DNA of 64,000 nt from Candidatus Omnitrophota bacterium (lineage in GTDB: Bacteria; Ratteibacteria; UBA8468; MWAK01): contig JBDRQI010000003.1 in NCBI GenBank assembly GCA_043826355.1, positions 7,440-71,439 on the forward strand, given 5' to 3'. Every line of letters begins with the position of its first letter. Within the stretch, counting starts at the first letter, position 1. The translations under genes were made by a program, and so were the position numbers. The notes beneath the pieces were generated by a model that did no database searches, was not told the DNA's origin, and saw only the letters and a list, made by a program, of their open reading frames with translations. Shown in pieces: positions 2,990-62,719 of this stretch.

Positions 2990-3739
2990 ATGAGCGGACA
3001 TTCCAAGTGGGCAAGCATCAAGCACAAAAAAGCGGCAACCGATGCGAAGAAAGGCAAAGCCTTTACCAAACTTATCCGCGAGATTATGATGGCGGCGCGC
3101 AACGGAGGCGGTAACTCTGACTCCAATTCCAGACTGCGCCTGGCTGTTGAAAAAGCGAAAGAAGAAAACATGCCGGCCGAAAATATCAAAAGAGCGATCC
3201 AGAAAGGAACCGGTGAAGGCAACGAAAACCAGATGGAAGAGATTTCCTACGAAGGATACGGTCCGGCCGGCGTGGCGATTAAACTTGACGTCGTTACCGA
3301 CAACAAGCGCCGCACCGCCTCGGAAATCCGGTCGGTTTTTTCTAAAAACAACGGGAATCTGGGCGAAGTAGGGTGCGTTTCCTGGATCTTTGAACGAAAG
3401 GGGCAGATTTCGATTCCCCGAACCGGAGCAGATGAAGACGCGCTCTTTACCCTGGCAATCGAATCCGGAGCGGAAGATGTTGTTTCGGAACCGGACTTTT
3501 TCCAGATATACACCCGGGCCGAAGACCTGGAAAAGGTAAAGAAATCCGTGGAGGCGGGCGGCATTAAGGTACAATCAGCGTTCTTTACGATGCAACCCAA
3601 AACAACAATCCGAATTGAAGGCAAAGATGCAGAACAACTTTTACGCCTGCTTGACGCCCTGGAAGACCACGACGACGTGCAAACGGTCTATTCCAACTTT
3701 GAAATTTCAGACGACCTTTTGGAAAAATTAAATATTTAG
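2990..3739 (+). CDS. yebC: YebC/PmpR family DNA-binding transcriptional regulator
   Basis: N-terminus MSGHSKWASIKHKKAATDAKKGK… is the hallmark YebC start; 249 aa typical length. Confidence 0.85.
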   Translation: MSGHSKWASIKHKKAATDAKKGKAFTKLIREIMMAARNGGGNSDSNSRLRLAVEKAKEENMPAENIKRAIQKGTGEGNENQMEEISYEGYGPAGVAIKLDVVTDNKRRTASEIRSVFSKNNGNLGEVGCVSWIFERKGQISIPRTGADEDALFTLAIESGAEDVVSEPDFFQIYTRAEDLEKVKKSVEAGGIKVQSAFFTMQPKTTIRIEGKDAEQLLRLLDALEDHDDVQTVYSNFEISDDLLEKLNI

Positions 3740-3780
3740 TGTAATTTACTGAAACGAGGACTATTTTTTTGCAACACTTC

Positions 3781-3912
3781 GCGTAATGTCAGCTGCAAAA
3801 CAAGCAATACGGAGGTTTGAGTATCCGGGGCTCGCCGGTTCTCCTGGCGAGAACACGGAGAGGCTCAAGCCGTAAGTTGCGTAGTTTTGTCTGATACGCA
3901 GAGTGTGTAGCA
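3781..3912 (+). ncRNA. Candidate structured RNA / repeat element, copy 1 (family shared with 46541-46740)
   Basis: Ends pair (UGUCAG..CAAAAC with GUUUUG..CUGAUA), internal hairpin CUCGCC/GGCGAG; homologous copy at 46.5 kb shows compensatory CUCACC/GGUGAG. Identity unknown. Confidence 0.3.
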
Positions 3913-3934
3913 AAAAAAACATCCGAGAGACCGA

Positions 3935-4423
3935 ATGATAGTGGCCGGATTTGACCCGGGACTGAACCGAACCGGTTTTGGAATTATCGAGAATTTAGCG
4001 CCGCTTTCGGTTCTGGGCTTCGGGGTAATTGCGCCCCGTGCCAGTAAAATTTTCGCGGAACGCTTATCCGAAATTTACGCCGGCGCCCGCCGGGTTCTGA
4101 AGGAGTATGCTCCGGACGTAATTGTGGTGGAAGAGATTTATTTTGCGAATAATCCCCAGACTACTCTTAAGATTGGGATTGTCCGGGGTCTTCTCTTTGC
4201 GGCGGCTCTGGAGCAAAAAATTGAAATCGCTTCCTTTTCGCCTGCGGAAGTAAAGATGGCGGTTGTCGGAAAAGGCAACGCCACCAAAGACCAGGTTGGT
4301 TTTCTGGTTGCCAGAATTTTGGGGATAAAAAAAGAAATTCCGGAAGACAGCGCAGACGCCCTGGCGGTTTCTCTTTGTTATCTCAGCCATCAAAAGTATA
4401 AGAGCAAATTATTGTTGGTGTAG
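3935..4423 (+). CDS. ruvC: Crossover junction endodeoxyribonuclease RuvC
   Basis: 162 aa, N-terminus MIVAGFDPGLNRTGFGII typical RuvC; followed by ruvA-ruvB. Confidence 0.9.
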   Translation: MIVAGFDPGLNRTGFGIIENLAPLSVLGFGVIAPRASKIFAERLSEIYAGARRVLKEYAPDVIVVEEIYFANNPQTTLKIGIVRGLLFAAALEQKIEIASFSPAEVKMAVVGKGNATKDQVGFLVARILGIKKEIPEDSADALAVSLCYLSHQKYKSKLLLV

Positions 4424-4504
4424 GGGAGGGGCTGTGCCCCTTCTCACAGTAGGACAGTCGTCTCGCTTGTCAAAACACGGGCGGGGATGTAACCCCGCCC
4501 CTAC
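4420..4504. repeat. GC-rich hairpin repeat element (GGGGAGGGG-type module plus second hairpin), upstream of ruvA
   Basis: gtaggggaggggctgtgcccc…cgggcggggatgtaaccccgcccctac; inverted termini GTAGGGG/CCCCTAC; related copy before leuC (61.26 kb) sharing tcgc(t/c)tgtcaaaa..cacggg and ending ctacaaa(a)atat immediately before the start codon. Confidence 0.55.
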
Positions 4505-4520
4505 AAAAATATTTTAATTT

Positions 4521-5099
4521 ATGTACGCCTATCTGCGCGGAAAATTAGCGGTTAAGAACCCGACCTCGGTAATCCTTGATTTGGCCGGCGTGGGTTACGA
4601 AGTGAGCATACCGCTTTCTACCTTCGACCATCTACCCGAAACGGGCGGCGAAGTTTTTCTTTATATTTACCCCTGCTACCGGCCGGAAAATATTACCCTT
4701 TGCGGTTTTGCCACCAAGGAAGAGAAACTGCTCTTCAACCTTCTTCTGGGGGTAAACGGCGTGGGTCCAAAACTCGGGCTGACCATCCTCTCCGGCACAA
4801 CCGCGGCTCACTTCCGGGATGCTATTATTTCCGGAGACGATAAGACACTCTGCGCTATTTCCGGTATCGGTAAAAAACTGAGCCAGCGCCTGATTACCGA
4901 ACTGAAAGACCAGATTATCAATCTGGAAGAATCTCTTTCCTCCGGTACGGAATCATCTCTGGAGAAAGAGGCGATTGGTGCCCTGGTAACACTGGGCTAT
5001 TCCCGCGCCAAAGCCTACAAAGCAGTTCAGGACGCAATGAATTCCAGGAAACCGGGTAGATTGGAACCGTTAATTAAAGAGGCCCTGAAACGGATTTAA
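4521..5099 (+). CDS. ruvA: Holliday junction branch migration protein RuvA
   Basis: 192 aa; MYAYLRGKL…VILDLAGVGYEV… canonical RuvA N-terminus; C-terminal domain present. Confidence 0.9.
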   Translation: MYAYLRGKLAVKNPTSVILDLAGVGYEVSIPLSTFDHLPETGGEVFLYIYPCYRPENITLCGFATKEEKLLFNLLLGVNGVGPKLGLTILSGTTAAHFRDAIISGDDKTLCAISGIGKKLSQRLITELKDQIINLEESLSSGTESSLEKEAIGALVTLGYSRAKAYKAVQDAMNSRKPGRLEPLIKEALKRI

Positions 5100-5172: not shown

Positions 5173-6216
5173 ATGGAAAAAAAACGGATTGACCTTACCG
5201 CACCCGATACTCTCCCCGAGGACACAAAGTATGATATCGCCCTGCGTCCGGTCAGCCTGGACGATTTTATCGGCCAGGATAAACTGAAACGAAATCTGAA
5301 AATTTTTATCCAGGCCGCATCCGAACGTAAGGACCCGCTTGACCACACGTTATTTTCCGGTCCGCCGGGTCTGGGTAAAACGACGCTGGCGCACATTATC
5401 GCTGCGGAAATGGGTGTAAAGATCAAAGCCACTTCCGGTCCCGCGATTGAACGCCCGGGAGACCTGGCCGGCCTGTTGACCAACCTTGGCCGTTCCGACG
5501 TAATCTTTATTGACGAAATACACCGGCTTAATCATACCGTAGAAGAATACCTGTACGGTGCGATGGAGGACTTTCACATTGATATTATGACTGGGGACGG
5601 TCCGCGCGCCAATTCCATCCGATTGACCCTGGAACCGTTTACCCTGCTCGGCGCCACCACCCGCGCCGGCCTTTTAACCGCGCCCCTGCGGTCCCGGTTC
5701 GGCATCAACCTGCGGCTGGATTATTATCCGTCGGACAACCTGGCGGCCATCGTGCGGCGCTCCGCCGGAATTCTCAAAGTTGTGATTGAAGACGGGGCCT
5801 CCGGAGAGATTGCCCGGCGCAGCCGCGGGACTCCCCGGATCGCCAACCGTCTTTTGCGCCGGGTGCGGGATTTCGCCCAGGTTTCCGGCGAGAAGATAAT
5901 CCGGCAGGAACTGGTTGTTTCGGCGCTGGACAGCATGGATGTCGACCGGTTCGGACTGGACGAGATGGATAAGCGTATTCTGGAGGTCATCATCCAAAAA
6001 TTTTCCGGAGGACCGGTAGGCGTTAAAACCCTTTCGGTAGCGGTCGGCGAAGAAGTGGATACCCTGGAGGAGATTTACGAACCGTTTCTGGTCAGGGAAG
6101 GATATTTGGAGCGGACCCTGAAAGGCCGCCTGGCAACACCCCGCGCTTATCAGCATCTTAATCTGGAAATTCCGAAGTCGTTGTCCGACCAGTCTAAACT
6201 TTTTAATAATACATAG
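5173..6216 (+). CDS. ruvB: Holliday junction branch migration ATPase RuvB
   Basis: 347 aa; Walker A GPPGLGKTTLA, AAA+ RuvB architecture. Confidence 0.95.
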   Translation: MEKKRIDLTAPDTLPEDTKYDIALRPVSLDDFIGQDKLKRNLKIFIQAASERKDPLDHTLFSGPPGLGKTTLAHIIAAEMGVKIKATSGPAIERPGDLAGLLTNLGRSDVIFIDEIHRLNHTVEEYLYGAMEDFHIDIMTGDGPRANSIRLTLEPFTLLGATTRAGLLTAPLRSRFGINLRLDYYPSDNLAAIVRRSAGILKVVIEDGASGEIARRSRGTPRIANRLLRRVRDFAQVSGEKIIRQELVVSALDSMDVDRFGLDEMDKRILEVIIQKFSGGPVGVKTLSVAVGEEVDTLEEIYEPFLVREGYLERTLKGRLATPRAYQHLNLEIPKSLSDQSKLFNNT

Positions 6217-7055: not shown

Positions 7056-7742
7056 GTGCATATTGGAATCATTATGGACGGGAACGGCCGCTGGGCTAAA
7101 AAGCGCGGCCGGCCGAGGATTTTTGGCCACAAAACCGGCGCGGACCGGATTGATGAAATCGTGCGCGCCTGTCCGGATTTAGGCGTCAAATATCTATCGC
7201 TTTACGCTTTTTCCACGGAGAACTGGAACCGGCCGGGAAAAGAAGTCGGTTTTTTGATTAAACTTTTCGCGGAAAAGATAAAGAAGAAAACGGCCGGGAT
7301 GAAGAAGGAAGGCGTCCGGGTTCTATTTTTAGGCGACCGGACCGCTTTTCCGGAAAACCTGCAGAGCTTGATGGCGTACTGTGAATCTGAAACCGCATCC
7401 GGCCGGAAAGTTAACGTGGCACTCTGCCTTAATTACGGAAGCCGGGATGAAATCGTAAGGGCGGCGCGCAGAATCAGCGAAGAGGTGCAGGCCGGAAAAC
7501 TGAAACCGTCACTGATTACCGAAAACCTCTTCAGCCAATATCTTGACACCCGGGAACTGCCGCCGCCGGATTTAATAATCCGCACCAGCGGAGAGTTGCG
7601 GTTATCCAACTTTTTCCTCTTTCAATCCGCCTACGCGGAGTTATATTTTACCCAAACCCTCTGGCCGGATTTCAGCACCGGGGAATTCGCTTCCGCGCTT
7701 GCTGAGTTAAAAAAACGGAAACGGCGTTTCGGAGACGTTTAG
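7056..7742 (+). CDS. uppS: Undecaprenyl diphosphate synthase
   Basis: HIGIIMDGNGRWA motif at N-terminus; 228 aa. Confidence 0.9.
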   Translation: MHIGIIMDGNGRWAKKRGRPRIFGHKTGADRIDEIVRACPDLGVKYLSLYAFSTENWNRPGKEVGFLIKLFAEKIKKKTAGMKKEGVRVLFLGDRTAFPENLQSLMAYCESETASGRKVNVALCLNYGSRDEIVRAARRISEEVQAGKLKPSLITENLFSQYLDTRELPPPDLIIRTSGELRLSNFFLFQSAYAELYFTQTLWPDFSTGEFASALAELKKRKRRFGDV

Positions 7743-7799
7743 TAGTGCGACCCTTTCAGGGTCGCCTGCAGGGGAGGGGTTCTGTCTCCTCCCGCACCT
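7743..7799. repeat. Composite repeat: REP-like module + GGGGAGGGG…CCTCCC hairpin module
   Basis: gtagtgcgaccctttcagggtcgc followed by ctgcaggggaggggttctgtctcctcccgc; creates spurious MRPFQGR… extension of dxr ORF. Confidence 0.6.
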
Positions 7800-13261: not shown

Positions 13262-15880
13262 GTGCAAAGTTTTGAAATAAGGCAAAAATATCTTGATTTT
13301 TTTAAGGAAAAAGGGCATACCGTTGTGCCGGGAATTTCCCTGATACCTCCGGAGGACCCGACATTACTGTTCACTTCGGCCGGAATGGTTCCCTTCAAGA
13401 ATTTCTGGACCGGTTCCGGTGAAATCCCGTATGTCCGGGCTGCGTCCTGCCAGAAATGCCTTCGGGCCGGCGGCAAAGACAGCGATTTGGATAATGTGGG
13501 TTTTGATTTTCGGCATAACACCTTTCTGGAAATGTTGGGTAATTTTTCTTTTGGAGACTATTTTAAAGAAGGCGCGATTGAATTTGCCTGGGAATTTCTG
13601 CTGCAACGCCTGAAACTGCCGGAAACAAATCTTTGGGTATCGGTTTACACCGAAGACCGGGAAGCGGTTGAAATCTGGAAAAAATACCTGCCGGATAAAC
13701 GGATTGTCCGGCTGGGCGCAAAAGATAATTTCTGGGGACCGGCCGGCGAAACCGGCGTTTGCGGTCCCTGTTCTGAAATATATTTTGACCGCGGTCCGGC
13801 TTTTTCCTGCGGGAAAATTTCCTGCAAACCGGGCTGTGATTGTGAAAAATACCTGGAGTTCTGGAACCTTGTTTTTCCCCAATTCAATAAAACCAAAAAC
13901 GGCGAACTTCTGCCTTTAAAGCGCCGCGGGATAGATACCGGAATGGGTCTGGAGCGAATTACCACACTGTGTCAAGGGGCTGAATCAAACTTTGACACCG
14001 ACCTGTTCCTGCCGATAATCAAAAAACTGGAAACGCTTTCCGGGATTATTTACCGGAAAAACAACGATACCCGGTCCGCTTTTCGCGCGGTAGTTGACCA
14101 TGTTCGCGCTTTAACCTTTACCATTGCGGAAAATATAGTTCCCGGTAACGAAGGAAGGGGATATGTCGTTCGCCGGATTTTGAGGCGGGCGGTGCAATTT
14201 TTGCAGGTGCTGCAGGTGGACAAACCGCTTCTTGCCGAACTCGTTCCCGAAGTTGTCCGGATAATGGGCGCATATTATCCGTATCTCCCGGAACGGGAGG
14301 GATTCGTCCGGGAAACGATTGCCGGCGAAGAAGACCGTTTTCTGAATCTTCTTTCAGAAAGCCGAACCCTTTTCAAGAGGTTCAAAACAGAATTTAAGGA
14401 TAAAACCCTGCCCGGCAAAATCGCTTTCCAACTTTACGACACCCACGGTCTTCCGCTGGACACAATCAAGGAAATCGCGGTTGAAAATGGCCTTTTTTTT
14501 GATGAAACCGGGTTTGAACTGGAAATGACCAGACAAAAAGCGGCCGGCCGCAAAGCTACCTCTTTTGATCTGATTGCCGACCGCAGTTGCCTGGCCGGGC
14601 TTTCACCCACCAAGTTTGTCGGTTACCAAACCGGTACTGCCCGGTCTTCCGTACTGGCAATTATCCCGGCTAAAAATAACCGGTATTCTCTGGTTTTATC
14701 GGAAACACCTTTTTACCCGGAACGGGGCGGACAGCAGGGAGATGCCGGAATAATCAGCGGGGACGGTTTTCGGTTTAATGTCTCGGAAACCAGGGTGGAC
14801 GAATCCGGCTTTATCCACCATCTGGGTTTATTCCAAAAAGGAACTGCGGTCAAGAATGACGCTGTAACCGCACAGGTGGATTCAGAAATACGCCAACAGA
14901 TTGCGGCAAACCATACCGCCACCCATCTTCTCCATTCGTCCCTGCGCCAAATTTTGGGTAACGAAGTAAAACAGGCCGGTTCCCTGGTGACGCCTGAATC
15001 GCTGCGTTTTGACTTTCTTTTTTCCGGAGAAATAGAACAAGAGAAACTTGGCAGCGTTGAAGAATTAGTTAATGAAAAAGTGCGGTCAAACCTGCCGGTG
15101 ACGATAACGGAAAAAGAATTAAAGGAAGCCATGGCCGAAGGCGCCATCGCTTTATTTACCGAAAAATACGGCGAAAAAGTCCGGGTAATCACCGCCGGTA
15201 ATTTCAGCAAAGAAGTTTGCGGCGGAACCCACCTTGATTACACCGGCGGCATCGGCCTCTGCCTGTTTGCCAGTTTCGCTTCGATCGGACAGGGGGTGAA
15301 ACGGATTGAAGCGGTTACCGGAAAAGCTGCCTATTCCCGGATAAAGGAACGGGAACGGCACCTTTTGGAACTGGCTGCCTGCCTGAAGGTGGAACCGGCC
15401 TTGATTCGCCTGGAAATAGAACGGCGCACGGAAGAACACCGGAAGCTGAAAATAAAATCCGACGCCTTTTTTTCCGCCTATCTCCACCGGGAGGCTGACA
15501 AAATAATCAAGGGCAAAAAATCTGTTGCCGGAATTAATCTTCTGACGACAACCCAGTTGTTGCTTTCACCGGAAGAGGCAAGGACTTTGATTGATTATCT
15601 TAAAAAAAAGTCTCCGGAAAGCGTCATACTGGTACTGCTTTCCGGAACGGATAAATCCCAAATTTTTCTGGGCTTAACTCCCGATATTATCCCCCGGGGT
15701 TTAAAAGCCAACGAAATCTTACGACAAGCCGCCGGGTTGCTGGGCGGTGGAGCAGGGGGCCGGGCCGATTTTGCCCAGGCCGGTTTGAAAGGGAGAGTAA
15801 ACCTGGAAGAAGCCGAAAAGACCCTGATAAAAATTTTGACAAATACTGATGGAAAACCCGGGCGGAACCACCACGGATAG
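13262..15880 (+). CDS. alaS: Alanine--tRNA ligase
   Basis: 872 aa; class II core, editing domain HTATHLLH and CGGTH motifs. Confidence 0.95.
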   Translation: MQSFEIRQKYLDFFKEKGHTVVPGISLIPPEDPTLLFTSAGMVPFKNFWTGSGEIPYVRAASCQKCLRAGGKDSDLDNVGFDFRHNTFLEMLGNFSFGDYFKEGAIEFAWEFLLQRLKLPETNLWVSVYTEDREAVEIWKKYLPDKRIVRLGAKDNFWGPAGETGVCGPCSEIYFDRGPAFSCGKISCKPGCDCEKYLEFWNLVFPQFNKTKNGELLPLKRRGIDTGMGLERITTLCQGAESNFDTDLFLPIIKKLETLSGIIYRKNNDTRSAFRAVVDHVRALTFTIAENIVPGNEGRGYVVRRILRRAVQFLQVLQVDKPLLAELVPEVVRIMGAYYPYLPEREGFVRETIAGEEDRFLNLLSESRTLFKRFKTEFKDKTLPGKIAFQLYDTHGLPLDTIKEIAVENGLFFDETGFELEMTRQKAAGRKATSFDLIADRSCLAGLSPTKFVGYQTGTARSSVLAIIPAKNNRYSLVLSETPFYPERGGQQGDAGIISGDGFRFNVSETRVDESGFIHHLGLFQKGTAVKNDAVTAQVDSEIRQQIAANHTATHLLHSSLRQILGNEVKQAGSLVTPESLRFDFLFSGEIEQEKLGSVEELVNEKVRSNLPVTITEKELKEAMAEGAIALFTEKYGEKVRVITAGNFSKEVCGGTHLDYTGGIGLCLFASFASIGQGVKRIEAVTGKAAYSRIKERERHLLELAACLKVEPALIRLEIERRTEEHRKLKIKSDAFFSAYLHREADKIIKGKKSVAGINLLTTTQLLLSPEEARTLIDYLKKKSPESVILVLLSGTDKSQIFLGLTPDIIPRGLKANEILRQAAGLLGGGAGGRADFAQAGLKGRVNLEEAEKTLIKILTNTDGKPGRNHHG

Positions 15881-18446: not shown

Positions 18447-18622
18447 AAATTAACAGGAGCAAGGGACGCCGGAATAAAACTGCGCTGGGGTTAATTTATT
18501 TTCCCGGTGTGAGAAAATTTGAGTTCAGGTGTCTGCCTCGTAAAATAACGATGCGCACCAGACAAAACTCCGCAAACTTTTCCTCATCAGGCACCTTCGC
18601 TTAAACATTGAAAGGAGATATA

Positions 18623-20445: not shown

Positions 20446-21156
20446 ATGGTAGCCGTAATTATCGTGGCCGCAGGCAAGGGCGAACGTTTAGCGGCTGGCG
20501 TCGACAAACCGTTCATCAAGTTGAACGGCCGGCCAATCGTCTCTTACAGCTTATCCTTGTTTGAAGAAATAACGGAAATCTCTTCAATAATCCTGGTGGT
20601 TTCCGGAGAAAGGATGGCCGACGCCGCTGCTCTGGTTACCCGATGCGGTTTAAGTAAGGTTAGGAAAATAGCGATTGGCGGTGCCGTTCGGCAGGAATCG
20701 GTATTCAACGGTCTGGAAGCACTCCCCCTTACAACCCGGACCGTCCTGATTCACGATGCCGCCCGGCCCCTGGTTTCCAAAGATAAGGTCGTGCAATTAA
20801 TCGCCATGGGGGGTAAAATTGCAACTATTCCGGCTCTGCCGGTTTCCGATACACTCAAAGAAGTGAAAGGCGGATGTATCCTGCGCACACTTGACCGCCG
20901 GCATTTTTATGCGGTTCAAACACCCCAGGTCTTTCCGCGGGAGGTTATTCTGACCGCCTACCGGCAAGCAAAACGTTTCGGGACGGTCGGCACGGATGAT
21001 GCCGCGCTGGCCGAGGCCGCCGGTTTCCCGGTGCAAATTATCGAAGGCGAACGCACCAATATCAAAATTACCTACCCGGATGACCTTATTTACGCCGGGA
21101 TAATACTAAAATTGAAAAAACAAAAGCATAAGCACAAATTATCAAACACAGCTTAA
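20446..21156 (+). CDS. ispD: 2-C-methyl-D-erythritol 4-phosphate cytidylyltransferase
   Basis: MVAVIIVAAGKGERL… glycine-rich CTP-binding start; ~236 aa. Confidence 0.85.
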   Translation: MVAVIIVAAGKGERLAAGVDKPFIKLNGRPIVSYSLSLFEEITEISSIILVVSGERMADAAALVTRCGLSKVRKIAIGGAVRQESVFNGLEALPLTTRTVLIHDAARPLVSKDKVVQLIAMGGKIATIPALPVSDTLKEVKGGCILRTLDRRHFYAVQTPQVFPREVILTAYRQAKRFGTVGTDDAALAEAAGFPVQIIEGERTNIKITYPDDLIYAGIILKLKKQKHKHKLSNTA

Positions 21157-21203
21157 GACCGATAATCGTAGATACAGATTAAGGATCAGGTAATGCCAAA
21201 TTT

Positions 21204-21300
21204 GCCACGGAAACACGGAAAAGTTCAATTTAAATATTTTAATCTTTATTATTTAACTTAAAATATCTCTTTGTTTCGTGTTATTCCGTGCTTCCGTGGT
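21204..21300. repeat. 14-bp inverted repeat (CCACGGAAACACGG / CCGTGCTTCCGTGG) flanking ~55-bp AT-rich spacer upstream of queD
   Basis: Read directly; one mismatch; lies in ispD-queD intergenic region. Confidence 0.4.
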
Positions 21301-21344
21301 ATTTTTTTTAGTATCATCCGGATGTTTGCGTCCAAAATAATTTT

Positions 21345-24581: not shown

Positions 24582-29032
<4,451 letters not shown>

Positions 29033-29033
<1 letters not shown>

Positions 29034-29120
29034 GGCGACCTTTACGGAAAATGCCAGAATGCCCCGTCCTGTGGACGGGGTTCTTCACTGCAACTATACG
29101 GGTTTCCTGGCTTTTTACAT
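29033..29120. repeat. Direct repeat copy B (degenerate duplicate of aminopeptidase 3' end) with embedded terminator
   Basis: gggcgaccttta[…hairpin…]ctgcaactatacgggtttcctggctttttacataaag aligns with copy A with ~4 mismatches. Confidence 0.6.
29062..29086 (+). terminator. Rho-independent terminator after lacZ
   Basis: CCCCGTCC-tgt-GGACGGGG stem followed by TTCTTC. Confidence 0.5.
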
Positions 29121-29132
29121 AAAGTAATTATT

Positions 29133-30188
29133 TCATTGCGCAGACGCGAAATTAGAGGATAAAACAAAATATTCTTTTAACTTTGACGCCTGAAGATTGT
29201 TGGAAATTCGAAGTTTCTGTTGCCGGCCGGAAATAAAGAAACGCCGCAAGTATTCAACCTCTTCGTAATCAACCCGGTAAGAAGTATCCATCAGACCACT
29301 GAGCGCCTGGCGTAAAATCTCGCGTTGCAGGGAAATGGGAAGAGATAAAAATTCCCGGCGGGGGATTTTATATCCCTCCGCTGCGTTTGTAGGGGCTCGA
29401 TTCATCGAGCCCGATGCGGGTCGCATGAATGCGACCCCTACATTATTAAAAAGACAGCGGGATTTTAAAAAATCAGCGGCCTGGCCGGAAATGTATTGGT
29501 AATCGGCGTTCAATATCTCGGCCATCCGAAAAAGGGCTCCCTTGATGTTGGGATTATACTCCGCAAGCAACGGCAATAGTTCCAGCCGGATACGGTTACG
29601 CTGAAATTTCTGGTCCAGGTTGGTCGCATCGCTGACAAACCGGTAATCTTTTTCCGCCAGAAATCCGGATATCTCAACCCGGCTTACAGAAAGCAGCGGC
29701 CGGATGAGATTGATTTTGGAACCGCTTGAAACAGGACGATAGGGTGTTATTCCGGAAAGACCCTGCAATCCTGTTCCGCGAATAAGGTGTAAAATAATTG
29801 TCTCGGCCTGGTCATCTAACTGGTGACCGGTCGCAATGGAATGACAGGAAAAATGGTCGGCGGTTTTTTTTAAAAAATCATAGCGCGCCTTCCGGGAAGC
29901 ATCCTCAGCCGCGCCCGGTTTCAAGGAACCTTTTCCGGCCAGAAACGGAACACGGTATTTGGCAGAGAGTTCCTTGCAGAAAACCGAATCATTTTCGGAA
30001 AACGGCCGGAGTCCATGGTCAAAATGCCCGGCAAAGAGACCGAATTTCAGGCGGGTTTGCCATACCCGCAAAAGATGGAAAAGACAGACTGAGTCCGGGC
30101 CCCCGGAAAACGCCAGGAGCACCCGATCCCCTTTTTTGACCAGGGAATGCTCGATAATATACGCTAAAACCTTATTTTGTATTTTCAT
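29133..30188 (-). CDS. tilS: tRNA(Ile)-lysidine synthetase
   Basis: PP-loop LLAFSGGPDSV, …GHQLDDQAET… motif; start inferred at MKIQNKVL abutting mutM stop; contains in-frame repeat insertion at 29389-29442. Confidence 0.8.
   Translation of the reverse strand: MKIQNKVLAYIIEHSLVKKGDRVLLAFSGGPDSVCLFHLLRVWQTRLKFGLFAGHFDHGLRPFSENDSVFCKELSAKYRVPFLAGKGSLKPGAAEDASRKARYDFLKKTADHFSCHSIATGHQLDDQAETIILHLIRGTGLQGLSGITPYRPVSSGSKINLIRPLLSVSRVEISGFLAEKDYRFVSDATNLDQKFQRNRIRLELLPLLAEYNPNIKGALFRMAEILNADYQYISGQAADFLKSRCLFNNVGVAFMRPASGSMNRAPTNAAEGYKIPRREFLSLPISLQREILRQALSGLMDTSYRVDYEEVEYLRRFFISGRQQKLRISNNLQASKLKEYFVLSSNFASAQ
29389..29442. repeat. 54-bp palindromic repeat element (GTAGGGG…two hairpins…CCCCTAC) inserted in-frame in tilS
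   Basis: gtaggggctcgattcatcgagcccgatgcgggtcgcatgaatgcgacccctac: hairpins GCTCGA-ttca-TCGAGC and GGGTCGCAT-gaa-TGCGACCC with inverted termini; translates to …VGVAFMRPASGSMNRAPT… in tilS frame. Confidence 0.6.
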
Positions 30189-30994
30189 ATCTGGCAGGAC
30201 GGGCAGAAATAGGTGGAACGGCTTCCGTCTTTTTGGACTCTGACCAGATTTCCGCAACATCGGCACGGCTGTCCTTTCCGCCGATAAACAAAAAGGCTGT
30301 TTTGGAATTTTCCGTAGCTGCCGTCCGGTTTCAGGTAATCCTGGATTGATGTCCCGCCTGCCTTGAGCGCTTCCTTAAGCGTTGATTTTATCGCCCGATA
30401 GAGTTTTTTTGTTTCGGCCGGCTGTAAAGCGGAGACCCTCCGGTCCGGATGAATGCCGGCCCGGAAAAGCGCCTCGGTCGCATAAATATTGCCCAGACCG
30501 GCTATTCTCTGCTGGTCAAGCAGAAACGTCTTGATACGACTGTTTTTCCCGAAGATGATCTGTTTCCAACATTCAAAGGTAAAATCGGGCGTCAAAGGTT
30601 CCGGACCTAAATTTAATTTTATTTCCGGGTCTTCACGGCGCAGGGTAAACCCGCCGAAACGCCGCAGGTCATGGTAATAAAGCCGGGACCCGTCCTGGAA
30701 CAAAAAAAGGACGTGATGGCGAATCTTGGGCTCCGATCCGGAAGAGTAGAGGAGTTGTCCGGAAAGTTTAAGGTGTACCTGAAGGTACAAGGACGGCTTG
30801 AGGTCAAAGATGAGGTATTTACCTCTGCGTCGGATATTACCAATTTCCCTGCCGATAATCTTTCGTTGAAAAAAAACCGGGGAAGTCTCTTTAATCAGTT
30901 TGGGAACCAGGATTTTTACTGCCTGAATTTTTTTACCGACTAAATCTTTAACCAATTGTCGGCGAATAGTCTCAACTTCCGGTAATTCCGGCAT
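30185..30994 (-). CDS. mutM: Formamidopyrimidine-DNA glycosylase
   Basis: Start MPELPEVE (catalytic Pro2/Glu3), C-terminal zinc finger CxxC…CxxC; ~269 aa from that start. Confidence 0.85.
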   Translation of the reverse strand: MPELPEVETIRRQLVKDLVGKKIQAVKILVPKLIKETSPVFFQRKIIGREIGNIRRRGKYLIFDLKPSLYLQVHLKLSGQLLYSSGSEPKIRHHVLFLFQDGSRLYYHDLRRFGGFTLRREDPEIKLNLGPEPLTPDFTFECWKQIIFGKNSRIKTFLLDQQRIAGLGNIYATEALFRAGIHPDRRVSALQPAETKKLYRAIKSTLKEALKAGGTSIQDYLKPDGSYGKFQNSLFVYRRKGQPCRCCGNLVRVQKDGSRSTYFCPSCQI

Positions 30995-30998
30995 AATA

Positions 30999-31436
30999 TT
31001 ACATCTCTTCCGTTTCTTTTTGGGGATAAGAAAGTTGATACCGCGAATCAAGATAATCCTGCAGAATTATCTGGGCGGAAAGGCGGTCAATTATATTCTT
31101 TCTTTTTTGACGGGAAAGGTCCGCGGAAAGGAGATAACGTTCCGCCAATTTACTGCTCAACCTTTCGTCCCACCTGGTTACCGCGCACCCGGTGATTTCC
31201 CGCAACTTCTCCATAAATCCGAGTATTGTCTTGGCCTGGGAACCCTCCTGATTATCCAGGGTTTTAGGCATGCCCACCACCAGCAGTTGCACCCGGTATT
31301 CCCGGATTATTTCCGGTATTTGTTTTTCCCATTGATTTTTGGGAATGACGGCCAGGCCCCGGGCCAGGGAACCATTTTCGTCGGAAATGGCCAGCCCGAT
31401 GGACCGGTGACCGTAATCAATTCCCAGGATTCGCAT
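30999..31436 (-). CDS. ruvX: Holliday junction resolvase-like protein RuvX/YqgF
   Basis: MRILGIDYGHRSIGLAISD… canonical YqgF N-terminus; 145 aa. Confidence 0.85.
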   Translation of the reverse strand: MRILGIDYGHRSIGLAISDENGSLARGLAVIPKNQWEKQIPEIIREYRVQLLVVGMPKTLDNQEGSQAKTILGFMEKLREITGCAVTRWDERLSSKLAERYLLSADLSRQKRKNIIDRLSAQIILQDYLDSRYQLSYPQKETEEM

Positions 31437-32259
31437 TTTTTATCGCCTCGGCTATCGCCAGGGCCCTTTTTACCTCCTTGACGTCATGTACCCGGAAGAT
31501 AGCGCCCCCGGATAAATAAGCGGTAACTACCGCGGCGATGGTGCCTTCCAGCCGTTCGTTAACCGCCAGACCGGTAATTTTGCCGATAAACGCTTTTCGG
31601 GAAGGACCCACCAGAATAGGCCGGGAAAGTTCCGCGAAATCATTAAGCCGCTTCAGGATGGTCAAATTATGCTCCGGGGTTTTGCCGAAACCGATGCCCG
31701 GGTCAATTACAATCTGTTCTTCGGAAACTCCGGATTTTTTTGCCTCGGCTATTTTTTCCGCCAGAAACTGCCTTATTTCCGCAATTACGTCCCGGTAAGA
31801 CGGATTCTCCTGCATGGTGGCGGGGGTTCCCTGCATGTGCATTAAAACTAAGCCGGACTTGTTCTCGGCAGCCAGTTCCAGAATGCGCCTGTCTTTTCCG
31901 GCCGTTATGTCGTTAATGATAGCAGCACCGGTTTTAAGCGCTTCCGCAGCCACCCTCGCTTTACAGGTATCCACGGAAACCGGAACCCGGGTTTTAGCGC
32001 AAATCTCTTCCAGAGCAGGCATCAATCTTTTCAATTCTTCTTCCTCAGAAACAGGAATGCTGCCGGGGCGGGTTGATACCGCGCCAATGTCGATGATATC
32101 AGCGCCTTCCTTTTCCATTAAAAAAGCATGTTCCAATGCTTTCTGGCGGGACGGGTATAAACCGTCTCCGGAAAAAGAATCAGGCGTCAGGTTTAAGATA
32201 CCCATAATCCTGGGCCGGGTAAGGTCAAAAACCGTATTTTTAATCAGCCAGTCAGGCAT
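31417..32259 (-). CDS. folP: Dihydropteroate synthase
   Basis: …IMGILNLTPDSFSGDG… pterin-binding signature; 280 aa. Confidence 0.9.
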   Translation of the reverse strand: MPDWLIKNTVFDLTRPRIMGILNLTPDSFSGDGLYPSRQKALEHAFLMEKEGADIIDIGAVSTRPGSIPVSEEEELKRLMPALEEICAKTRVPVSVDTCKARVAAEALKTGAAIINDITAGKDRRILELAAENKSGLVLMHMQGTPATMQENPSYRDVIAEIRQFLAEKIAEAKKSGVSEEQIVIDPGIGFGKTPEHNLTILKRLNDFAELSRPILVGPSRKAFIGKITGLAVNERLEGTIAAVVTAYLSGGAIFRVHDVKEVKRALAIAEAIKNANPGN

Positions 32260-33747: not shown

Positions 33748-35184
33748 TTATAAAGCGGTTTGCAGACGATGAAGCACTTTTTCCCTGCCCAATAAAGATA
33801 GCGTTTCAAAAAGGCCCGGTCCCACCGTTTGCCCGGTTACGGCCACCCGCAGCGGGTGAAAAACCGCACTTGTCTTCAGGTTTTGACCCGTACAGTAATC
33901 ACGAATGATTTTCTCCAGATTGACCGTAGAAAAATCGGCCTCTTTTTTCAGCAGTTGGTTTACGTCGGTCAGTATTTTCCCCGCGCCTTCTTTTTGCAAA
34001 ATTTTTACCTTTGCCTTAGCATCATATTCAACCTCTTCCTTCAGAAATATCTTGGCTGCTTCCGGTAAATCGGAAAATTTCTTAACGCGTTCACCCATTA
34101 CGGTAATAACCCGGGCAAGATATTCCCTTTCTTCCGGAAGAACCGTCTCGGAAATCAGGCCGGCCTCCCGCAGAAAAGGCAGGCTTAAATCAACCAACCG
34201 GCTTAAATCCGCCTTATGGAAGTAAAGTCCGTTCATCCAGGTCAATTTTGCCAGGTCAAAGATGGCCGCTCCCTCTTTGCAGCGTTCCAGGCTGAATTCT
34301 TGAATTAATTCGGCCGGCGTGAATATTTCCTTGTCTTCGGTGGTCCCCCAACCCAGAAGCGCCAGATAGTTAAAGACCGCTTCCGGCAGAAACCCCTGGA
34401 TTCTCAGTTCGCGCAGTGAGGTGGCGCCGTGCCTTTTGGAAAGACGGCTGCCATCCGGACCAAGGGTCATGGCCATGTGGGCAAAAAAAGGCGGTGTTTT
34501 ACCGAATGCTTCAAAAAGAAGTATGTGCCGGGGTGTGTTGGAAATATGGTCTTCACCGCGGAATACGTGCGTTATTTCCATGGTAATATCGTCCAGGACA
34601 ACTGCAAAATGAAAGGCCGGTTTTCCGTCCGATTTCATGATTATCAGGTCACCCATCAAAGCGGTATCAAAAGTAATCTCTCCGCGGATTAAATCATTAA
34701 AGGTGACTTTTCTTTCCGGCAACCGGAATCGGACGACCGGTTTCCGGCCTTCTTTTTCAAAAGCGGCTTTCTGTTCCCCGGTAAGCGAGCGGCAGCGGTT
34801 ATCATAGCGTGGGCTTTCCTTCCGCTGCATCTGCGCCTGGCGCATTGCCTCCAGTTCCTCCGGCGCGCAGTAACAGAAATAGGCCTTTTCCTCTTTCAGC
34901 AAACGCTGTGCTGCCTCTTGATATATTTCCAGGCGTTCCGACTGTCGGTAGGGATTGAAAAGACCGCCTATATCCGGGCCTTCGTCCCAATCCAGGCCCA
35001 GCCAGGTCAGGTCCTCTAAAATTATTTTTTCATATTCCGGCTTGCTTCGTTCCGGGTCAGTATCCTCAATGCGTAAAATGAAAGAACCCTTATTCTTGCG
35101 CGCCAGAAGGTAATTAAAAAGTGCAGTTCTGGCGTTTCCGATATGCAGGTATCCGGTTGGACTCGGCGCAAACCTTACTCTCAT
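33748..35184 (-). CDS. gltX: Glutamate--tRNA ligase
   Basis: MRVRFAPSPTGYLHIGNART HIGH motif, KLSKR (RLSKRHG); 478 aa. Confidence 0.95.
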   Translation of the reverse strand: MRVRFAPSPTGYLHIGNARTALFNYLLARKNKGSFILRIEDTDPERSKPEYEKIILEDLTWLGLDWDEGPDIGGLFNPYRQSERLEIYQEAAQRLLKEEKAYFCYCAPEELEAMRQAQMQRKESPRYDNRCRSLTGEQKAAFEKEGRKPVVRFRLPERKVTFNDLIRGEITFDTALMGDLIIMKSDGKPAFHFAVVLDDITMEITHVFRGEDHISNTPRHILLFEAFGKTPPFFAHMAMTLGPDGSRLSKRHGATSLRELRIQGFLPEAVFNYLALLGWGTTEDKEIFTPAELIQEFSLERCKEGAAIFDLAKLTWMNGLYFHKADLSRLVDLSLPFLREAGLISETVLPEEREYLARVITVMGERVKKFSDLPEAAKIFLKEEVEYDAKAKVKILQKEGAGKILTDVNQLLKKEADFSTVNLEKIIRDYCTGQNLKTSAVFHPLRVAVTGQTVGPGLFETLSLLGREKVLHRLQTAL

Positions 35185-35194
35185 TATTTCCCCC

Positions 35195-35340
35195 AGGTAT
35201 TGAAAATTTAACCGCAGAGCACGCAGAGCACGCCGAGAATTACTAAAGATAAAGGTTAAATATTATTACTGTTTTTTCTTCAAGTTTTCTTTCTTGCTTC
35301 GTACTTCTCTGCGGACTCAGCGGTCTCTGCGGTGCATCTT
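35195..35340. repeat. Imperfect inverted repeat (…CCGCAGAGCACGCAGAGCACGCC… / …CTCTGCGGACTCAGCGGTCTCTGCGGTGC…) flanking AT-rich spacer between gltX start and ispF stop
   Basis: Read directly; same architecture (GC-rich IR arms, ~60-70 bp AT-rich centre) as elements at 21.2 kb and 38.2 kb. Confidence 0.35.
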
Positions 35341-35343
35341 TTA

Positions 35344-35820
35344 TTATTTTACAGAACCCAAAGTAACGATTGCGAATGAAGAAATTGCCTGTCCTTTTCC
35401 GACTTCAGCCAGACCTTCGTTGGTTTTAAATTTGACACCGACCATTTCCGTACCTATCTTCAAAGCACCGGCTATTCCGGCTTGTATCTCGCCCCGAAAA
35501 GGGGAGAGGGAGGGTTGCTGGCAGACCAACACGGTATCTACCTGTTTAACCTTCATCCTTTTCCGAACGGCTATCCTTCTGGTTCTTTCCAACAACTCCA
35601 GACCGGAAATTCCTTTCCACCTGGGGTCGGTATCCGGAAAATGAACTCCGATATCCCCGAAAGCCATTGCGCCCAGTATCGCGTCGGCGATGGCGTGGCA
35701 AAGCACGTCTCCGTCGCTATAACCTAACGGCCCTTTGGCAAACGGAATCTTTACCCCGGCGATAACCAGCGGTCTTCCTTTAACCAGGCGGTGGATATCC
35801 GAACCGATTCCTATTCTCAT
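35344..35820 (-). CDS. ispF: 2-C-methyl-D-erythritol 2,4-cyclodiphosphate synthase
   Basis: MRIGIGSDIHRL…, …GYSDGDVLCHAIADAILGA… zinc/motif blocks; 158 aa. Confidence 0.9.
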   Translation of the reverse strand: MRIGIGSDIHRLVKGRPLVIAGVKIPFAKGPLGYSDGDVLCHAIADAILGAMAFGDIGVHFPDTDPRWKGISGLELLERTRRIAVRKRMKVKQVDTVLVCQQPSLSPFRGEIQAGIAGALKIGTEMVGVKFKTNEGLAEVGKGQAISSFAIVTLGSVK

Positions 35821-42847: not shown

Positions 42848-42951
42848 CTTATCTCCTTTTTCAAATAATATGCAAAGTGAGCAATCCTAAAATGACCATA
42901 TTACCTTTACGCGTTTTAGAATTGTCTGTTTTTGTTGTTATTTCCTCACAC

Positions 42952-43215
42952 TTACTCGATTTTCCAGGACAAAAACTTCCGACGCTTGCGGCCCCGATCG
43001 TAAACCGTCGTAATCTTCTTTTCCGCCAGGACCTCCTTCTCTTCTATTTTACCATTTCCATTGAAATCTTCAACACTCTGACCGGTAACCGTAATGCGAA
43101 AAACATTGCTGCGTACCGTTACCAGGTTGCTGATGCGGCGATAAACCAGTTCCCGCTCGTCATCCTCGTCAATCGTCTTTATCGTCGTCTTTAAGGTTAT
43201 AGCCCCACAAAGAGT
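42952..43215 (-). pseudogene. Out-of-frame C-terminal continuation of gspK-like gene (frameshift region)
   Basis: Minus-strand frame shifted by 1 relative to 43169..45034 stays open for ~72 codons past the annotated stop (…RELVYRRISNLVTVRSNVFRITVTGQ…), resembling GspK C-termini; no Met-initiated ORF of its own. Confidence 0.45.
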
Positions 43216-45675: not shown

Positions 45676-46028
45676 TTTTTGACGAATCTTGTTTCAAAAG
45701 TTTCCTTCTCTTCTTTGCCGCCTTCCTTCCAATAAACGTCAAGCGAGACAAAATACATCCCGCCGTCTTTTTCTATTGCCGCCGTCCACCGGAATCCGTC
45801 CAGATCCTCTCCGGAAATTTCCGCCGGGGGAGGCGGGCTGTCCTCCCCGGAATAACGAACCCGGATTAAAGAAATTTCTTTTTCGGCTATCGCGGCGGCC
45901 CGGCTGTAAAAAACCGTCTGGCTTACCGCCTGGTGGCCGGAAGGCATCAGGGAAAGGATTGAGATAATCCCGGTCGCAAAAATGACCAGGGCTATGATAA
46001 CCACCAGGAGGGAATATCCGTTCTTCAT
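45672..46028 (-). CDS. gspI: T2SS minor pseudopilin GspI-like
   Basis: MKNGYSLLVVIIALVIFATG… prepilin-type N-terminus; 118 aa. Confidence 0.55.
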   Translation of the reverse strand: MKNGYSLLVVIIALVIFATGIISILSLMPSGHQAVSQTVFYSRAAAIAEKEISLIRVRYSGEDSPPPPAEISGEDLDGFRWTAAIEKDGGMYFVSLDVYWKEGGKEEKETFETRFVKK

Positions 46029-46483
46029 TCTATCTTAACCTTGCCGGTCAGGTTATACAGGATTATCCTGTGTTTCCGGCCGGTACGCTCGTCTTTGACG
46101 ACCATTGAACCGGAAACACCGAACAGCCCTCCGTCCGGTCGGAAAATAATGGGAGGAAAGTTGCTGGAAAACGAAACGATGCGTATTCCATCCGGGAGTT
46201 TTTCCTCCCGGCCGATTTTTTCTCCGGTTTTCACATTATTGATGCGCAGGGTATCTCCGGTGCGGCTGATCAGCACTTCAAAATTATTGCGGTCCTTGAT
46301 CGCCTGGAAGCGCGCCAGATTAAGGGTTTGTTTTACCGTCAAACAGGCTAACTTAAGCTCCCTTTCCTTCTGATGACGCAGAAATTGAGGCAACGTTCCC
46401 CAGATTAAACAAACCGTCAGAAACAATACAACCAGCGCCTCAATCAAACTAATCCCTCTTTTCCTCTTCATTTTTCCAAACAC
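46025..46483 (-). CDS. gspH: T2SS minor pseudopilin GspH-like
   Basis: …KRGISLIEALVVLFLTVCLI… prepilin-type N-terminus; 152 aa. Confidence 0.55.
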   Translation of the reverse strand: MFGKMKRKRGISLIEALVVLFLTVCLIWGTLPQFLRHQKERELKLACLTVKQTLNLARFQAIKDRNNFEVLISRTGDTLRINNVKTGEKIGREEKLPDGIRIVSFSSNFPPIIFRPDGGLFGVSGSMVVKDERTGRKHRIILYNLTGKVKIE

Positions 46484-46540
46484 TTGTGTAATATGTCGTT
46501 TTTCTTCAAGCTTGGGTGTCTGGTTCGTAAAACTTCACGG

Positions 46541-46740
46541 AGTGTCAGCTACAAAACAAGCAGGACGGAGAGGTGAGTATCCGGGGCTCACCTGTAATCT
46601 AGGTGAGAGCCCGGCCAGCAACTGACCCACTTCCGTCTCTTCGGCGTATGGCCGGGACAAGTGTTGTTCTCAACACGGAGAGGCTCGCCTCGCAGTTGCG
46701 CAGTTTTGTCTGACATGCAGGGCGTTTCACGGACCAGACA
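46541..46740 (+). ncRNA. Candidate structured RNA / repeat element, copy 2 (extended variant of 3781-3912) inside gspG-gspH spacer
   Basis: Shares 5' GUGUCAGCUACAAAACAAGCAGGACGGAG, central GAGUAUCCGGGGCUC and AACACGGAGAGGCUC, and 3' GUUGCGCAGUUUUGUCUGACAUGCAG with copy 1; ~70-nt extra internal arm. Confidence 0.3.
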
Positions 46741-46748
46741 CCCAAGTG

Positions 46749-47186
46749 CTACCAATTGCCAATATCATCCTCAGTCCCTCTTTTCCGGTCCGGTCCGCAG
46801 GAAAAGAGCAAAAAAGGCGCTGATTGATGTACTTGCTGCGGGTATTGATACTGGTAGGGTTCTTTCCACGGATCCAACAGTTCTCCGGCCTGAAGGTCTT
46901 TTTCCTTAAAACGCAGATAGGGACCTTTCCAACGGGGGTTTTCGGTTTCCCCGATCAGGACACTTAACACTTCCCGGAAGGTACCGGAATGGGTCGGATA
47001 ATCGCCGAAATCGGTTTCGTACAGGGAAAGGGCTGTTTCAAGCGCAATGATGGTTGCCTGGACTTTGGTGAACAACCCTCTCTGTCTTGCTTTTTGGCTG
47101 GCCGGTAAAACAAGACCGGCCAGAATGGCTCCGATGGCTACAACGATCAGTGTCTCCAGCAGGGAAAAACCTCTGCGATTAACCAC
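46749..47186 (-). CDS. gspG: T2SS major pseudopilin GspG
   Basis: …RRGFSLLETLIVVAIGAILAGL… with Glu5 after predicted cleavage; 145 aa. Confidence 0.85.
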   Translation of the reverse strand: MVNRRGFSLLETLIVVAIGAILAGLVLPASQKARQRGLFTKVQATIIALETALSLYETDFGDYPTHSGTFREVLSVLIGETENPRWKGPYLRFKEKDLQAGELLDPWKEPYQYQYPQQVHQSAPFLLFSCGPDRKRGTEDDIGNW

Positions 47187-62629: not shown

Positions 62630-62706
62630 GTAGTGCGACCCTTTCAGGGTCGCTTTGTTAGAACAGGCGTTTTGTATGTAAAAATGCAGGGGAGGGGCTA
62701 TGTCCC
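62630..62706. repeat. Composite repeat: REP-like module + GGGGAGGGG-ctatgt-CCCCTCCC hairpin in leuC-leuD spacer
   Basis: gtagtgcgaccctttcagggtcgc … aaaatgcaggggaggggctatgtcccctccc; creates spurious MRPFQGR… extension on leuD ORF. Confidence 0.6.
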
Positions 62707-62719
62707 CTCCCAAAAAATT

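Follow-up and report, generated by a model that had tools for sequence, protein, structure and literature searches.

Structured elements at two gene junctions

Between yebC (2990-3739) and ruvC (3935-4423), the window, a 64,000-nucleotide stretch of Candidatus Omnitrophota DNA, carries a structured element on the forward strand. The whole inserted segment spans 3731-3930, as delimited by alignment with the empty sites of three relatives (L053, L054 and L052), by the open reading frames (ORFs) and by Pfam. It consists of an unpaired 5' leader (AATATTTAGTGTAATTTACTGAAA, 3731-3754), the counterpart of the T-rich (T)TAGTTTTTCTTC leader found in most copies, and one long hairpin (3755-3927) supported by folding, the consensus structure, pair counts and a covariance model. 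A second copy occupies approximately 46486-46748 of the same strand, with the leader GTGTAATATGTCGTTTTTCTTC at 46486-46507 and the long hairpin at 46508-46748. This copy is antisense to the gsp operon: both flanking genes, gspH (46025-46483) and gspG (46749-47186), are on the reverse strand, and the 3' end of the hairpin is 1 nt from the gspG stop codon. The predicted start of gspH is the GTG at 46483; the conserved N-terminus MKRKRG begins at an ATG (complement of 46469-46471), which leaves a spacer of about 36 nt between gene start and hairpin.

The ORFs and Pfam bear out the contexts given by a first-pass annotation, namely yebC, element and ruvC for copy 1, and gspG, antisense element and gspH for copy 2. 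That annotation rightly called the element structured and drew both copies too short, the hairpins reaching the limits given above with a leader in addition. The blocks it described as shared are present at both loci on direct sequence check, and the window contains exactly two instances each of GAGTATCCGGGGCTC and AACACGGAGAGGCTC, all of them perfect matches. Run on the window with filters off, the covariance model of the core returns 124.8 bits (3780-3904) and 36.1 bits, the next best match reaching 14.9 bits. The initial count of two holds for core-bearing copies only; a third copy, with its core deleted, lies at 18523-18602 of the reverse strand.

Across the family, a unit of 180-245 nt comprises the unpaired T-rich leader of about 20 nt, sometimes preceded by TCGYTTTA, and a single long irregular hairpin of 175-240 nt. 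The outer arms run from GCGAGG on the 5' side to CCGAGC on the 3' side, and the tandem G-A that most copies hold there is replaced by Watson-Crick pairs in four copies. Located at 3755-3777 / 3905-3927 in copy 1 and at 46511-46533 / 46724-46746 in copy 2 (91% complementary), these arms of about 23 bp are very different in sequence between the two copies and complementary inside each; over the whole family they form unrelated types, and the leader stays unpaired outside the 5' arm. Inward from the arms follow a conserved internal loop (CUUCRCGGA / GCAGNGY; 3778-3787 / 3896-3904 in copy 1), P2 (GWCAG/CUGRC; 3788-3792 / 3891-3895), P3 (CAAAAC/GUUUUG or CAAGAC/GUCUUG; 3795-3801 / 3884-3890), P4 (3804-3806 and 3809-3810 / 3876-3880), a hypervariable P5 of 8 bp (3814-3821 / 3864-3871), P6 (UCCG/CGGA; 3824-3827 / 3856-3859) and the terminal hairpin P7 (3831-3836 / 3846-3851), all on the forward strand. 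The core is asymmetric, its 3' strand being unlike its 5' strand, and its internal-loop sequences are near-invariant.

The ORF list holds no frame of at least 60 amino acids inside copy 1 or copy 2, and a short ORF was rejected on the stop codons in the frames read by eye. A reading as an intrinsic terminator was likewise rejected because no U-tract follows the hairpin on either strand. Within the leader, a TAnnnT-like box (TAGTTT/TATTTT/TAATTT-like) is conserved 6-10 nt before the hairpin base; its distance is fairly constant, and the fresh insertion between yebC and ruvC also carries it. The leaders have no conserved -35 element, and a promoter scan of copy 2 returned nothing.

Elsewhere in the window, an AT-rich spacer (21098-21319, about 29% GC) contains a 31-nt inverted repeat with CCACGGAAACACGGAA / TTCCGTGCTTCCGTGG arms and a folding z of -3.5. 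It matches one conserved block with 3 mismatches and was considered as a family copy, yet proved to be an unrelated spacer. At 35198-35346, a 49-nt inverted repeat (71% complementary) with a tandem GCAGAGCAC motif lies mostly in a spacer, overlapping the end of the ORF at 33748-35184 and the start of an ispF-like ORF (35344-35820).

Compensatory changes and the folding strand

The two window copies differ by paired substitutions that the first-pass annotation had already picked out. GUCAG faces CUGAU in copy 1 (G-U pair) and CUGAC in copy 2 (G-C pair), and the internal hairpin reads CUCGCC/GGCGAG in copy 1 and CUCACC/GGUGAG in copy 2, a double change that swaps G-C for A-U. Compared with shuffled sequences, folding gives z values of -7.8 for copy 1 and -7.2 for copy 2. 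The covariation check with additional copies that the annotation had proposed gives a strong signal, not one of simple decay. With 22 copies aligned by MAFFT, the consensus from RNAalifold holds 49 pairs, and double changes occur in 29. In the named structure of 62 pairs, 91.1% of the cells pair and 36 pairs have changed on both sides; P6, for example, goes from U-A to G-C in two copies (L028b and L047a). None of 500 column shuffles reaches any of five measures, and sliding the 3' partner by 1-3 columns as a control lowers pairing to 30-44%. The two conserved blocks doubled as search patterns, so their invariance is in part an ascertainment effect; the blocks carry 0-2 changes in six pattern-independent copies (L028b, L047a, L047b, L049a, L049b and the L052 copy), L049b excepted.

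Compensatory substitutions keep the hairpin in being. The view that the element is simply a repeat in decay, or an inverted repeat arisen by chance, whose structure is unconstrained would fit the one copy that has lost its core and the mismatched arm types of another (L028a, below). The fraction of cells that pair, the double-changed pairs, the shuffles, the slid controls and a folding z of about -7 all speak against it, leave this explanation a negligible probability and rule out a repeat that decays without any structure.

RNA folding energy is lower on the element's plus strand in 22 of 22 copies, by a mean of 12 kcal/mol, and with DNA parameters the plus strand of copy 1 is also the more stable one. 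Core pairs include 41 G-U against 12 A-C, half of the core excess coming from two positions; in the outer arms the two strands are balanced (23 vs 24). The plus strand is thus favored as the folding strand, though not proven, with RNA and single-stranded DNA indistinguishable in these data.

Members of the family

At both loci, cmscan against Rfam 15 assigns no family, either at the gathering threshold or at E<=10, where only chance snoRNA matches of 14-17 bits appear. RNase P, SRP, 6S, tmRNA, riboswitches, ribozymes and HEARO are accordingly absent from the assignments, in keeping with the first-pass annotation, which had matched the element to none of RNase P, SRP, tmRNA, 6S and the common riboswitches. 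Over the whole window, gathering thresholds yield only 5S rRNA and one tRNA.

Copies were collected by two pattern scans, by nhmmer of the fetched loci and by look-ups of neighboring genes, to a total of 25 distinct copies from Omnitrophota and Ratteibacteria MAGs and from metagenomes. The 5' pattern, scanned over species-representative genomes, found 4 loci in two Candidatus Omnitrophota MAGs and one Candidatus Ratteibacteria MAG, and the 3' pattern found 16 loci in metagenomes; all 20 are short forms. Further copies came from nhmmer on the fetched DNA and on DNA reached through GspG and RuvC homologues. In viral contigs, 25 matches to one 15-mer were set aside as chance because none carried the second block, and plasmid and phage collections gave no match. 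Absent from Rfam and from the searched literature on structured or non-coding RNA of Omnitrophota/Omnitrophica, in which nothing relevant was found, the family is previously undescribed.

Filled and empty junctions

In L053, L054 and L052, whose RuvC proteins are respectively 92%, 88% and 84% identical to that of the window, yebC and ruvC overlap by ATGA and have no element between them. Aligned with these sites, 3731-3930 of the window is a 200-nt insert in place of CAAG. This single clean filled/empty pair displays no target duplication and no conserved target, and 4 nt are lost. In most copies a TA lies 0-3 nt from the 3' end, and the flanks are AT-rich. L052 has its own copy between an ABC-ATPase gene and uppS, ending in GGAGCGC 4 nt before the uppS start, and in the window the same two genes are separated by a 44-nt spacer without element. 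The gspG/gspH junction is filled in five genomes (the window, L028, L046, L047 and L049); in L050, whose GspG is 64% identical, the two genes abut without element, stop and start sharing a base (TAGTG). The junction 3' of a gspK-like gene is filled in L028, L047 and L049 and empty in the window, where a supposed decayed remnant at the gspK/surA junction (42850-42960) was withdrawn, its alignment scores falling inside the shuffle null.

The first-pass annotation had left the choice between a novel small RNA and a structured mobile element. Filled and empty orthologous sites directly support the mobile branch. A use of the element as RNA in addition would have in its favor the better folding of the plus strand in 22 of 22 copies and the G-U excess of the core.

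A Logan contig of the same organism (L001 1-64) has its start within copy 1 and marks a break of the assembly at the repeat. The RuvC-bearing contigs of relatives are mostly very short.

Variant copies, decay and turnover

The core-deleted copy at 18523-18602 (reverse strand; nhmmer E 0.01-0.035; alignment score 47, with shuffles giving 20.5 +/- 4) lies 5 nt from the start of an rplI-like ORF (18608). In it, TTGCGGAGTTTTGTCTG and the 3' arm follow directly on the 5' arm, and the near-repeats GCGGAGT and GCGTAGT bound the deletion. In this respect the family behaves partly as decaying repeats. The extra arm of copy 2, first put at about 70 nt, measures 64 nt (46608-46671, forward strand) and is inserted between P7 and AACACGG. 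It defines a long form, recurs at the same position in L028a and L041, and was not found outside the element in the fetched sequence. A second kind of extra arm, at a different site, is the 29-nt hairpin CCCTTTCC...GGAAAGGG of L049b (L049 14400-14440, in a minus-strand copy at 14327-14537), which sits inside the otherwise invariant AACACGGAGAGGCUC block. L028a (L028 1903-2146, minus strand) combines a 5' arm of the GGGTGTTCTGGTTCG type with a 3' arm of the GCAAAAGAGACA type, a mismatch that may stem from recombination between family members or from an assembly chimera.

Directly upstream of six full copies, orphan segments made of leader and 5' arm follow a period of about 54 nt (L029 3060-3115, L030 ~4860-4915, L032 5078-5123, L035 ~1215-1270, L046 ~845-900 and L052 13085-13136). 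They are always cut near GCGGAGT/P2, and their arm type differs from that of the adjoining full copy; among the copies, no orphan 3' arm was seen.

Copies at the same locus in different genomes are 66-82% identical, and pairs from different loci reach 89-92%: the gspG/gspH copy L047a is 89% identical to the gspK/surA copy L028b of another genome, and L046 is 92% identical to L030. Since likeness across loci thus exceeds likeness at the same locus for some pairs, copies at a site have been replaced or the site has been hit repeatedly. Paralogues within one genome are about 71-74% identical, several old sub-lineages coexisting per genome. The element is multi-copy and dispersed; it inserts at gene junctions where close relatives lack it, is replaced at occupied sites, and decays through internal deletion.

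Position relative to genes

The 3' end lies at most 6 nt from a gene boundary in about 16 of 20 informative copies. Its distance to the stop codon of a convergent gene is -1 to +4 nt in 14 copies, which represent eight independent sites; the two copies in sense orientation end 4-6 nt ahead of a start codon. Most copies are antisense within an operon and immediately adjoin a stop codon; it is on the element's 5' side that spacers, orphan arms and small REP-like hairpins have built up. On the minus strand, 15 of 24 copies have an NTAG 0-4 nt away, 8 of 24 having GTAG, and some of these are host stop codons. TAG on this strand also adjoins a tRNA and is absent at the fresh yebC/ruvC insertion.

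In L038, 3 nt separate the 3' end of the element from that of a convergent tRNA-Glu. In L030 (4527-4666) and L044 (178-307), a segment of 130-140 nt, missing from L038, separates the 3' end of a tRNA (tRNA-Lys and tRNA-Glu) from the element. Both segments start with a duplicate of the tRNA's last ~20 nt and contain GCTCCTTAATC; they may represent another small element that targets tRNA 3' ends.

At approximately 29000-32000 of the window, the genes switch from plus to minus strand and the cumulative GC skew reaches its maximum, an inverted pair of REP-like units lying at 29389-29441. This region could be the replication terminus, or the skew could be a mere effect of the change in coding strand. 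Copy 1 lies to the left of the flip in GC skew and gene strand near 29-32 kb and copy 2 to its right, and both fold on the plus strand. Orientation set by replication was therefore rejected.

At yebC/ruvC, the leader gives yebC a new end (..KLNI*, stop TAG at 3737-3739), and the 3' end of the element places GAGAG 6 nt before the ruvC ATG (3935). Judged by its sequence, the 3' end of the sense copies (GAGAG/GGAGCG) is Shine-Dalgarno-like, so that with the stop codon of the leader, formerly overlapping genes can stay expressed. Such features are what a cis-acting mRNA element serving the flanking genes would bring, be it an intercistronic stabilizer, a processing site or a modulator of translation. 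The closeness of the element to gene boundaries fits this role as well. REP and ERIC elements can have such effects, and mRNA stability is affected by repeats at gene 3' ends (PMC3184786). In most copies, however, the better-folding strand is antisense to the host mRNA, the neighboring genes are unrelated across copies, close relatives do without the element at the same junction (yebC/ruvC), and the hairpin lacks a U-tract on either strand. A cis-acting function as the explanation of the element has a slim chance of being right, and such a role in the mRNA is likely a side effect at most.

The same elements might instead be small RNA genes with a host function, trans-acting or cis-antisense, driven by a promoter of their own in the leader (the TAnnnT box) and spread by duplication or recombination. 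Covarying stems around near-invariant internal loops, the greater stability of the plus strand in every copy compared, and a leader box that keeps a near-constant distance and travels with the fresh insertion would all suit such genes, as would the sub-lineages common to several genomes, the coexistence of old sub-lineages and the occupation of gspG/gspH in five genomes. This explanation is weakened by the lack of a conserved -35 element, of any promoter in the scan of copy 2 and of a terminator, and further by presence and absence between close relatives, by swapping at a locus and by the decay of copies. Antisense placement in operons, flush to stop codons, is moreover unusual for independent small RNA genes. 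We regard it as unlikely and yet as a serious rival.

REP-like hairpins and the search for a partner enzyme

The 18 window ORFs tested are housekeeping genes and include no transposase, reverse transcriptase, Cas protein or RAYT. A tblastn search of about 240 kb of fetched sequence with an IS200 TnpA query, an insensitive search, gave no match. Wherever flanks are annotated, the copies adjoin housekeeping genes, which are unrelated between copies, and no tnpB, iscB or IS110 gene stands beside the element.

Small REP-like units are present in the same DNA. Each consists of a 7-bp GC-rich hairpin followed by (A/C)CTAC, which on the other strand reads as GTAG plus a palindrome. In the window they are located at 4480-4504 (+), 7742-7765 (-), 29389-29441 (the inverted pair), 62630-62653 (-) and 62691-62710 (-), and elsewhere at L028 ~6070-6130, L032 5120-5215 and L047 9360-9410. 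The (A/C)CTAC tail is carried by five of about 25 distinct GC-rich hairpins in the window, far above chance. Other genomes carry the same three or four unit types, which often form tandem arrays immediately 5' of the element, in its orientation. GTAG-type REPs go with RAYT transposases, which makes a RAYT a candidate enzyme for the element.

A further explanation is that the elements are guide or scaffold RNAs of an RNA-guided transposon, similar to omega-RNA or bridge RNA, in the form of protein-less derivatives served in trans. A conserved structured scaffold of about 180 nt within a mobile unit, unlike ends, no target duplication at yebC/ruvC and a 3' end that always abuts flanking host sequence are compatible with this. 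Rfam gives no match, HEARO included, no tnpB, iscB or IS110 lies beside copies whose flanks were seen, and the variable parts are base-paired stems rather than open target-reading loops, all of which renders it very improbable. Likenesses to an integron attC, a retron msr/msd, a CRISPR repeat or tracrRNA, 6S RNA and the hairpin ribozyme were considered and rejected, since no gene for a reverse transcriptase, an integrase or a Cas protein adjoins the element and Rfam lends them no support.

A probable lineage-specific family of structured mobile repeats

The preferred reading, to which we assign a probability of roughly 0.6, is that the copies form a lineage-specific family of structured mobile repeats that are non-autonomous and owe their movement in trans to an enzyme that we infer. 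Propagation would involve recognition of the hairpin of one strand, with a single-stranded hairpin as the intermediate. The intermediate would most likely be single-stranded DNA handled by a HUH/RAYT-like or IS200/IS605-like enzyme, to which the adjacent co-oriented GTAG-type REP hairpins, the unlike ends and the lack of target duplication at yebC/ruvC point; an RNA intermediate would be the alternative. In a different version, the core would be a working RNA that drives its own spread as a ribozyme, as a template or primer for reverse transcription, or as a protein-recruiting scaffold. The near-invariant loops, the consistent plus-strand preference, the promoter-like leader box, the flush 3' ends and the orphan 5' segments suggest this version, which we nevertheless consider distinctly unlikely.

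To our knowledge, next to nothing has been learned of the mobile DNA and non-coding RNA of the uncultured phyla Omnitrophota and Ratteibacteria. The family offers a clean, strongly covarying structured repeat that splits overlapping genes yet brings a stop codon and an end resembling a ribosome-binding site, and it marks assembly break points. Several old sub-lineages survive side by side and displace each other at shared junctions, which makes the family usable for studying target choice. If the partner enzyme were found, the family would help to define a hairpin-recognizing transposition system outside the well-studied Proteobacteria. Should the core prove to be an active RNA, the interest would be much wider, the element being then a new kind of RNA-structured bacterial mobile element rather than a DNA-level MITE or REPIN.

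Comparison with known systems

With classical MITEs the element shares its short length, the lack of an ORF, its multiple copies and its dispersal over unrelated loci in several genomes; terminal inverted repeats conserved among copies, a further trait of MITEs, are not found. ERIC has longer variants with internal insertions of about 70 bp, which the 64-nt extra arm resembles. ERIC and Correia-type repeats are imperfect palindromes of about 100-160 bp that lie between genes, often at gene 3' ends, are co-transcribed and affect mRNA fate (PMC3184786). They have conserved terminal inverted repeats and TA target duplications, whereas the element has arms that differ wholly from copy to copy, a leader that stays unpaired beyond the 5' arm and, at yebC/ruvC, no target duplication. 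PATEs of the IS200/IS605 group with omega-RNA are similar in their unlike ends, strand-specific hairpins and protein-less derivatives, and they make no target duplication, just as none is visible at yebC/ruvC; the element differs in having no separate hairpin at each end, no adjacent tnpA/tnpB and no match to HEARO or any other Rfam family.

In logic, the closest system is that of the REPINs, which are hairpins with a 5' single-stranded tail that undergo compensatory changes and are mobilized in trans (PMC3116915). Like them, the element is non-autonomous, multi-copy and extragenic, with a hairpin, an unpaired 5' tail and compensatory changes (PMC3116915). GTAG-type REP hairpins moreover occur in the same genomes, beside the element. 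Unlike a REPIN, it is a single hairpin of 175-240 nt and not two inverted REPs with a short spacer, internal loops are conserved in its core, whose 3' and 5' strands are dissimilar, GTAG stands beside only 8 of 24 copies, and the 18 window ORFs include no RAYT. Its 180-245 nt are about twice the usual size of a REPIN.

In behavior, bcr1 of the Bacillus cereus group is the closest analogue, being about 155 bp long, varying in position between strains and carrying compensatory changes at the RNA level (PMC3184786). Compared by description only, bcr1 differs in belonging to another phylum, in having 5-bp direct repeats at its ends and in being transcribed. In conclusion, because the terminal inverted repeats conserved in classical MITEs are missing, the one clean filled/empty pair displays no target duplication and the build is not that of a REP doublet, the element is placed among structured interspersed mobile repeats, in no named family.
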